Assembly (NCBI GenBank): GCA_964016885.1
Contig: OZ024740.1
Span: 227,106,001-227,170,000, forward strand
Origin: Eledone cirrhosa
Lineage: Eukaryota
Direction of reading: 5' to 3'
Length of the DNA: 64,000 nucleotides
Shown here: positions 25,496-27,193 of the stretch, piece by piece
Layout of the letters: each line of letters begins with the position of its first letter
Position numbering within the stretch: position 1 is the first letter of the stretch
Made by a program: the position numbers and the translations under genes
Notes under the pieces: model-generated
The model's database searches: none
Told to the model about the DNA's origin: nothing
Seen by the model: only the letters and a program-made list of their open reading frames with translations

Positions 25496-26246
25496 TCTTT
25501 ATATTACCTTTACCTTTATTGACCAACAACAAAAGAATTTTTTTTTTTAAATCATATGAGATGGAAGACAGTAGTAGAGAAAACATAAAATAATGTAAAT
25601 GATACAACATATGATATATTCCTTTATATATTTCTTAGAACAGTCTATAAAATATTAGCATGTACATCTTGAGTATTTATAAAATATTGAAATATTTATA
25701 TAAATAAATTCATTCTAATTGGAGACATAAGTTAAAGAAAAAAAATGATATCCAAGAAAAAAATGGAAATTTAATTATTGTAAAACTGCCTTTATAAAGT
25801 TACTTGACTTGAAAATGAAAATTAAAATAGTCCTAATTCTATTAATGAATAATTTTATTAGTTGAAAATATTTTTTTTTATTTCTTACATCAGAAAAATA
25901 TCTAATTTTCTCATTTCTAATTTCAAAAAGTATTTTACATACATACATAAACAAACTCACACACACACACGCACACACATACACACATACACATATATAT
26001 ATAAATATATACAATATATATATATACACGTAAAAGGTAAACAGAAATAACAACACAATCGGTACAGTATATTGGGTTAACGCTTGATATACTCCTACAT
26101 TTATTCATTTTGCTTTTATATATATATATATTAATAAAAGGAATTCCAAGTTTGTCTGATTTACTTGTTTTATTTACAATCCTTTAAAATTTATAATGGT
26201 ATTAGAATGAAATAGTATGGTAGAATGCTAAATGCTAAGTGTTAAT

Positions 26247-26285
26247 TGAACAAGTACTTTCATGCTTTCGCAATCTTCAGGTTCA
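26247..26285 (-). ncRNA. Minimal type I hammerhead ribozyme (family 2, left arm)
   Basis: Minus strand: TGAAC-CTGAAGA-TTGC-GAAA-GCAT-GAAA-GTAC-TT-GTTCA. Stem I TGAAC/GTTCA, GNRA-capped stem II, palindromic AAGTACTT. Confidence 0.8.
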
Positions 26286-26350
26286 CATTCTGTGGTGACA
26301 GTCAAGTTTGCAATTTTCAACTGTGCAAACTTGACTGTCACCACAGAATA

Positions 26351-26389
26351 TGAACCTGAAGATTGTGAAAGCATGAAAGTACTTGTTCA
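26351..26389 (+). ncRNA. Minimal type I hammerhead ribozyme (family 2, right arm)
   Basis: Plus strand: TGAAC-CTGAAGA-TTGT-GAAA-GCAT-GAAA-GTAC-TT-GTTCA (CpG to TpG change in stem II retains a U-G pair). Confidence 0.75.
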
Positions 26390-27193
26390 ATTAACACTTA
26401 ACATTTAGTATTCTACCATACTATTTCATTCTAATACCATTATAAATTTTAAAGGATTGTAAATAAAACGAGTAAATCAGACAAAGTTGGAATTCCTTTT
26501 ATTAATATAATCTTCTATACACAATCATACACACCTGTGTATATTTATATATATATATATATATATATAGTATTAGTTATATATATATATATCAATATGC
26601 TTCAAGGCAAACTTTACTTTTTAGTATTTTTAGGAATGTAGAAGCCAGTTGTACCAGTTACTACATGCCAAAATATACTCATAACATTTAATCCTATTAG
26701 ACTGGCTACTCCATTAGTGAGTCTCTTTACCCCTTTTGGAGGTCATAGTAGCAACAACGAATTATGCATCTCCATTCTTTAATTACTGTATAACCTGAAA
26801 TATATAACTGCAATCTTATGAAATACACATGAAGCTTACAATACAGCCTCGTTATCTATTTGCATCTAGGTTAATGGCTGGAATATTTGAGAGACAGCAG
26901 CCTTAGCCACAAACAAAATACACTATTTCTAGCAGGATATAACCAGGCAACCTCTTAGCAACCACTATCCCATCAATTTGGCCAACAATGATGTAGATAC
27001 ATCATATGCAACCAACTATATATATATATATATATATATGTGTGTAATATATATAGTTCAAGAATAGACAAGACATACAGGGAGATGCAAAAACATAGTC
27101 TTATTACTTTCACACTTAGGAAGATATATATATATAGTATATATACATATATATATACATATATATATATATATAGTATATATTTATACATAT

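Follow-up and report, generated by a model that had tools for sequence, protein, structure and literature searches.

Structure of the palindrome

The window, which is the whole 64,000-nt stretch of DNA analyzed here and derives from a 3.0-Gb animal genome, with a microsatellite-rich context that suggests an octopod, contains a palindrome at positions 26127-26509, centered on 26318. Its arms (26127-26312 and 26324-26509) match at 180 of 186 positions, with six mismatches, and flank an 11-nt loop (26313-26323). An earlier note on this DNA had described a 383-bp palindrome with 186-bp arms and an 11-nt loop, and its description of arms and loop stands. The symmetric 383-bp limit does not, since the right arm runs on into a 38-nt tail. 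The predicted RNA fold of the palindrome has an energy of -286.9 kcal/mol (z = -44), which none of 100 shuffled sequences equals.

As argued below, each arm is a copy of the pLTR of a Penelope-like element (PLE). The untailed arm (26127-26324, minus strand) spans -162 to +37 on the L065 reference; it begins with ACAG (26324-26321), where transcription is inferred to start, and stops at the family's inner end point. The second arm (26324-26509, plus strand) lacks the first 11-12 nt of the pLTR, and base 26324 is common to both arms. The loop is no mere spacer; it is the unpaired 5' end of the complete left arm, absent from the right one. The junction consequently consists of a 1-nt overlap with 11-12 nt lost from one arm, and it differs from the ACWGT type described below. 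The tail of the family (26510-26547, plus strand), found on the right arm only, makes the unit asymmetric. It is predicted to fold as an AC-rich stem-loop bounded by two TA-like sites, and corresponds to the 'tail' of PLE insertion units as defined in PMC8557442 and PMC11167929.

(TA)n flanks the palindrome on both sides, which upholds the proposed insertion into a TA tract. The border of the arm with the left tract (26118-26126) is blurred by TA microhomology, and within the right tract (26548-26570) a target-site duplication is indistinguishable inside the microsatellite. Contigs from three sequencing runs show the repeat, none of them covering the whole palindrome. A repeat search over the whole window is dominated by microsatellites, and a tblastn search of the window with PLE proteins returned no PLE coding sequence.

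The parent element

A 25-mer of the arm has 7,245 exact copies in the genome and the 33-nt hammerhead sequence has 5,654, with none for the reversed controls. Besides this estimate of copy number, the earlier note had proposed searching for direct-repeat copies and for copies linked to a Penelope ORF. Both searches succeeded, the latter for this family (family 2) and also for family 1, discussed below. Three of the 30 best copies extend at least 1.5 kb upstream into a GIY-YIG frame. At L031 the architecture of the window recurs in enlarged form, a 775-nt inverted copy with the tail facing a 2.6-kb copy. At L065 two hammerheads lie in direct tandem with a period of 4,202 bp around an open frame of 775 aa, and this full-length frame is open in 8 of 20 fetched stretches (L064-L069, L078-L082 and neighbors).

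The L065 frame (L065:5318-7642) matches GIY-YIG with an E-value of 3.2e-6, at a score that passes the cut-off, and RVT_1 with an E-value of 2.9e-6 (27.6 bits, under the cut-off of 29.6). A DKG motif is visible in the protein, as is a C-x4-C-x2-C linker of the type given for Neptune and Nematis in PMC8557442. The CX2-5CxxC linker and the (TA)n preference are as in Neptune, the linker being common to Neptune and Nematis. At E ≤ 1e-20 the protein has 506 relatives, and those with names come from molluscs. Of the traits of canonical EN+ PLEs, the element has an RT followed by a C-terminal GIY-YIG endonuclease, a pLTR with a hammerhead, a partial tandem arrangement, an inverted 5'-truncated copy and a 38-nt tail on one end. 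Because copies of the arm continue into RT and GIY-YIG frames, and given the tandem unit and the linker, each arm is read as the 5'-truncated pLTR of a young PLE. We are highly confident that the palindrome joins, head to head, two 5'-truncated ends (pLTRs) of an abundant Penelope-like retrotransposon with RT and GIY-YIG domains, inserted in a (TA)n tract; this confidence refers to its identity as inverted PLE ends. Such head-to-head pLTR palindromes belong to an insertion type that is already published.

The full element departs from the canonical single ORF in having two overlapping frames. ORF1 (L065:3981-5411, 449 aa from the ATG) overlaps the RT-EN frame (L065:5318-7645) in -1, and within the overlap a T TTT TTA heptamer lies in frame. 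Three related elements (L231:1330, L232:586 and L235:915) have this heptamer in frame at their overlap too, and it is absent from L306. The conservation of this sequence makes it likely that an EN+ PLE lineage uses programmed -1 frameshifting. The legend to Fig. 1 of PMC8557442 permits a frameshift-separated ORF1, with the clade unstated in that legend.

Two observations on related sequences may be recorded here. Near-identical full-length copies with open frames are found at G000 C1:147231501-147245500 (L064, L065) and in L066-L069, in tandem plus inverted arrays, and this family looks recently active. Several PLE proteins (L305-L358, P0006, P0010, P0068) are filed under bacterial genomes or symbiont names; these are likely host DNA in those assemblies.

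Hammerhead motifs and their predicted activity

Each arm carries one copy of a 39-nt motif, TGAAC-CTGAAGA-TTG(C/T)GAAAGCAT-GAAA-GTAC-TT-GTTCA, and both copies are oriented outward, just as had been noted. The motif of the untailed arm (26285-26247, minus strand) has the family-majority sequence, with a predicted cut between 26252 and 26251. In the right arm (26351-26389, plus strand) the cut is predicted after 26384 (CUU), and a C-to-T change at 26366 weakens stem II. This T is the minority state, with C found in 98 of the first 100 copies listed. The core elements CUGANGA, GAAA and UH are present together with a helix I that closes the ends, and the core is intact in 78 of 94 arms. Helix III is a single A-U pair around GUAC, resulting in a self-complementary AGUACU, and a U-U pair closes stem II.

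The assignment as a minimal type I hammerhead relies on a custom descriptor that requires a palindromic helix III besides the core and helix I; it detects seven such motifs in the window and none in the reversed control. An Rfam search gives no hammerhead match, even at E-values up to 10, and yields microRNA-type hairpin matches only, all under the cut-off. The isolated motif is predicted to fold no better than its shuffles (z about 0). In model energies, the monomer with a 1-bp helix III lies at +0.3 kcal/mol vs -5.0 kcal/mol without it, and the AGUACU duplex at -4.8 kcal/mol, values that bear out the dimer-type helix III proposed before. By these models, the hammerhead in the full element would act only as a dimer via AGUACU, probably with the help of protein.

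The view of the palindrome as an unusual two-ribozyme device is not supported. With one motif on each strand, a single transcript holds one hammerhead and its antisense, and opposite-strand pairs have already been published (PMC4209133). Since the palindrome transcript is predicted to fold into a long hairpin, with a stem I probability of about 1e-45, it is likely unable to cleave itself. Helix I has a predicted pairing probability of 0.0 in the isolated start-site transcript as well. With helix I unable to form in its own transcript and with arms that have no TATA box, the locus is likely inert; it is ordinary retrotransposon debris.

The U-U pair at the base of stem II is indeed non-canonical, as had been pointed out, replacing the G10.1-C11.1 pair; it is not unique, being found again in three related elements (L233, L241 and L305). 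U17 likewise recurs in five relatives. Judged by this recurrence, U-U and U17 are lineage traits rather than decay. The U-U variant of stem II also shows that in such genomes thousands of hammerhead motifs escape both the standard descriptors and Rfam.

The expectation that the motif would be conserved above its flanks holds in part. Private substitutions over 94 arms are equally frequent in core (19/1222), stems (35/2444) and flank (162/9962), as expected of dead copies, and by this substitution count the core is under no selection after insertion. The core is kept between subfamilies and also between distant families. None of the 17 subfamily-diagnostic columns falls inside the 39-nt motif, a count that is weak taken alone. 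Of 42 related loci from other samples, six had less than 250 nt downstream of the ORF and were too short, leaving 36. In eight of these a type I motif with palindromic helix III follows the ORF in sense orientation, vs none in antisense and none in 720 shuffles. We infer that the pLTR carries the hammerhead as a passenger and that the templates of the palindromes were uncut.

Ends, tails and junctions across the family

An ordered sample was assembled by fetching every one of the 100 exact anchors that come first along the genome, as 87 stretches. The 5' ends of 51 of the 100 copies fall at -165 to -150 of the anchor, with the mode at -162; 31 lie further in, some through internal deletions, and 18 further out, two of these limited by the end of the stretch. 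A TATA box begins 31 nt above -162 in all four long loci examined, which represent two subfamilies, and CCAAT boxes lie further upstream. Over the whole genome, 384 TA-flanked starts on the minus strand fall at the -162 site, vs 3, 22 and 14 in three other 13-position intervals. The start stretch also resembles a 3' splice site (it ends in TTACAG), and only 2 of 100 copies begin right after ACAG. A 3' splice site as the cause of the pile-up is not favored, because the copies keep ACAG.

Removing 6 duplicate stretches from the ordered sample and adding the window gives 82 loci (L107, L108 and L110 are one insertion). A head-to-head partner is present in 42 of these and a tail-to-tail partner in none, where partners more than 1.5 kb away would be missed; a partner within 2 kb would arise by chance with a probability of about 0.002. 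Seven of the 42 pairs were dropped (five stubs, one internal inversion and one junction between full copies). The tail is on exactly one arm in 33 of the remaining 35 scoreable pairs (p = 2e-8). The exact center TTTTCA-ACWGT-TGAAAA is common to 582 loci, of which 40 new ones formed a second set. There, 26 loci have one tail, one has both, none has no tail and 13 are unscoreable, giving 26 of 27; for the two sets combined, the tail is confined to one arm in 59 of 62 scoreable pairs. In 14 of 26 cases the tailed arm supplied the central base of ACWGT (p = 0.85), a choice that is random between the arms, and the ACWGT center is found on all subfamily haplotypes.

Within the second set, overall divergence between the arms is 1.7% within a locus vs 5.0% between loci. 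For the ordered sample, the difference at diagnostic sites is 11% between the arms of one locus vs 45%. In the second set, the arms differ at three to five diagnostic subfamily sites in 3 of the 40 loci (L372, L383 and L394). Junctions vary widely among loci and several hold short templated duplications of junction sequence. Either arm may be the longer; a rule that the tailed arm is always longer proved false across loci, including the long-arm cases. In a very young array at L069:5020-5332 (L108), the inversion center begins at the predicted cut, on a short imperfect palindrome just below it.

A second, mild excess of 5' ends is seen at the predicted cut (-90/-89), where nine TA-flanked starts compare with 8 in the 13 positions upstream (p = 1e-4) and 21 in the 13 downstream (p = 0.014). 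In the ordered sample, four of 30 are independent loci of this kind. As a sign of cleavage this is a hint only, because shared TG sequence at compound microsatellites (microhomology), a pause of the RT at helix I or deletions that follow insertion could each produce it. One arm that seemed to end at the cut site (L135) was rejected as an internal deletion.

Origin of the inverted arms

The palindromes were likely made anew, from two RNA copies per insertion. The element's enzyme would cut both strands of the (TA)n target, and each target 3' end would prime reverse transcription inside the 5' region of a sense RNA, starting in one case at the far boundary of the tail and in the other at the near boundary, both of which are TA-like. 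Each cDNA would run off where the RNA begins, about 31 nt below the TATA box. At their 3' ends both cDNAs would carry ACTGT, which is nearly self-complementary, and these ends would then anneal or join by microhomology and be filled in, with the central mismatch of annealed ACTGT ends repaired either way, or the ends joined with small losses as in the window. Two annealed run-off cDNAs are favored by the 5' pile-up below the TATA box, the one-tail rule and the random center base across subfamilies. The proposal also matches, by analogy, the in vitro behavior of the PLE protein of PAc (PMC11167929). This protein cleaves both strands and extends them, initiates internally from two sites on either side of an AC-rich tail, and works with uncut RNA.

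Several points count against the two-cDNA model. The transcription start is placed by promoter spacing alone. Arms of the same subfamily are equally explained by a single template, and the discordant loci could be products of gene conversion. The junction in the window is itself not of the ACWGT type. In vitro, moreover, both start sites are used on both strands, with no coupling reported in the parts of PMC11167929 covered here, and the one-tail rule therefore requires an additional asymmetry. A fuller version of the model, which we offer tentatively as somewhat short of an even bet, is that an asymmetric dimeric complex with two sense RNAs, possibly paired through helix III, primes the strands of the (TA)n break from two fixed sites; the run-off cDNAs would anneal at the near-palindromic transcription start, and a small share of the templates would be hammerhead-cut.

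The strongest competitor derives the mirror arm from one template, a single cDNA or antisense RNA snapping back on its 3' end and being copied, with the hairpin opened at integration. Antisense self-priming is a published proposal (PMC3846280), the arms of one locus mostly carry one subfamily haplotype, the transcript 5' end is a predicted hairpin, and the short templated duplications at several junctions would suit such a process. The commonest exact junction would, however, require a 2-bp hairpin with a 1-nt loop. A single first strand should also fix both which arm has the complete end and which arm is longer, yet the complete end belongs to either arm equally (to the tailed one in 14 of 26 cases) and either arm can be longer. 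The three loci of 40 with arms of different subfamilies, and a pile-up 31 nt below a sense TATA box, which suits a sense template, weigh in the same direction. We consider snap-back from one template unlikely, and on the number of templates we lean moderately toward two rather than one.

Copying of the palindrome as a whole, as a MITE-like or retrozyme-like non-autonomous unit whose hammerheads release its RNA, is largely refuted and very improbable. One exact center in 582 loci, near-fixed arm lengths and a high copy number would all be natural for such a unit. A master palindrome would nevertheless tie center, tail side and subfamily together, and the data show no such tie, the center occurring on every subfamily background and its central base being unlinked to the side of the tail. 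Nor do the variable junctions, the 40 of 82 loci without a partner, arms that reach kilobases, the lack of tandem arrays of the short unit, a hammerhead locked in the transcript hairpin and a core without selection after insertion agree with it. The fixed structure from a master copy that marks MITEs and fold-back elements is not seen, given variable junctions and a center that is unlinked to the tail side and occurs in all subfamilies, and neither are the direct tandem repeats with same-strand hammerheads of retrozymes, the short unit being single or inverted.

An assembly artefact from fold-back reads, or a chance hammerhead match, deserves hardly any credence: the Rfam result, the z of about 0 for the isolated motif and the absence of a public contig covering the palindrome would fit it, but the arms differ at six sites and by the tail, hundreds of loci have varied junctions, and chance does not account for 8 of 36 related elements with a sense type I motif vs none in antisense or in 720 shuffles.

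Should the fuller version of the two-cDNA model be true, the family would be a genome-scale read-out of how PLEs make inverted ends, and hammerhead-cut templates would be genomic evidence of a U-U minimal hammerhead cleaving in vivo.

Family 1 and other repeats in the window

A second palindrome, of family 1, lies at 19425-19763 and has one tail, of 87 nt; a first look gave 2,712 candidate copies. Its link to PLEs comes from reading family 1's own frame, as the family 1 loci give no tblastn match to family 2 proteins. Long copies (L359) end in a frame with CxCX5C, IVY..YVG, CxxC and CxH, which are given as Hydra-clade marks in section 11 of PMC8557442, and the frame matches GIY-YIG with an E-value of 7e-4, under the cut-off. 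By these sequence marks, family 1 is a Hydra-clade Penelope element. The earlier suggestion that the common architecture of the two families reflects a common mobilization mechanism gains support, since both are PLE ends, and it implies two PLE clades sharing one insertion chemistry. Family 1 (window 19425-19850) additionally has a 26-nt minisatellite in its 3' region and a 5' pile-up of its own.

Three more type I motifs with palindromic helix III (ATATATAT or ATGATCAT) occur in TA-flanked repeats at 51262, 18318 and 6004, all on the minus strand; these repeats are likely pLTRs of further PLE families. The window also contains two copies of a LINE-type RT fragment (20953-22663 and 42294-44000) that are 91% identical. 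Another TA-flanked palindromic repeat, of about 270 bp, is present in the flanks of fetched loci (L002:760-1030, with similar ones in L025, L027 and L021).

Comparison with known systems

Among the features searched for in the literature, the start-site pile-up, the one-tail count and the random center base are undescribed in the open-access text passages covered. PMC8557442 describes the (TA)n bias of PLEs and states the origin of their tandem and inverted structures as open, and PMC3846280 describes head-to-head inversion with junction palindromes. It is because this origin is named as open that the family matters. A single genome with thousands of young copies and with intact frames makes the question of inverted ends countable, in the form of one tail per pair, a random center base and a start-site pile-up, and provides a ready substrate for in vitro work with two RNAs.

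Non-LTR retrozymes (bioRxiv 10.64898/2026.07.22.740005; PMC7229834) share with the palindrome their non-coding, PLE-derived nature and a type I hammerhead. They form direct tandem arrays with same-strand hammerheads, whereas the arms here are inverted and not copied as a unit.

Metazoan PLE hammerheads are described as minimal and dimer-type, with low activity and with opposite-strand pairs 100-700 bp apart (PMC4209133); dimeric PLE hammerheads are also attributed to Luense et al., as cited in PMC6765202. The motif resembles those of PMC4209133 in its core (CUGANGA/GAAA/UH), 5-bp helix I, small palindromic helix III and predicted dependence on dimerization. It differs in the U-U that replaces the conserved G10.1-C11.1 pair, and in a stem II of 3 bp with a GAAA loop, vs 7-8 bp in Schistosoma.

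The Poseidon element PAc in vitro (PMC11167929) shows the same two internal starts bounding an AC-rich stem-loop tail, the use of both strands and uncut RNA. In contrast to PAc, which initiates at a site non-homologous to the cut DNA, both end points here are TA-like and match the (TA)n target. The ORF here begins 83 nt below the inner end point, whereas in PAc it begins inside the hammerhead. The promoter of PLEs has been located in the pLTR (PMC2377424).

EN+ PLE insertion units consist of a pLTR, an adjoining inverted 5'-truncated copy and a 30-40 bp tail on one end (PMC8557442; PMC3846280). Unlike these units as described there, the present family shows a sharp 5' pile-up below the TATA box and a dominant ACWGT junction, as well as palindromes in which both arms are about 200 nt and two frames with a likely -1 frameshift. 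In inversion, single tail, partial tandems, 5' truncation, (TA)n target, pLTR hammerhead and linker, it corresponds to the canonical EN+ PLE units of both papers.
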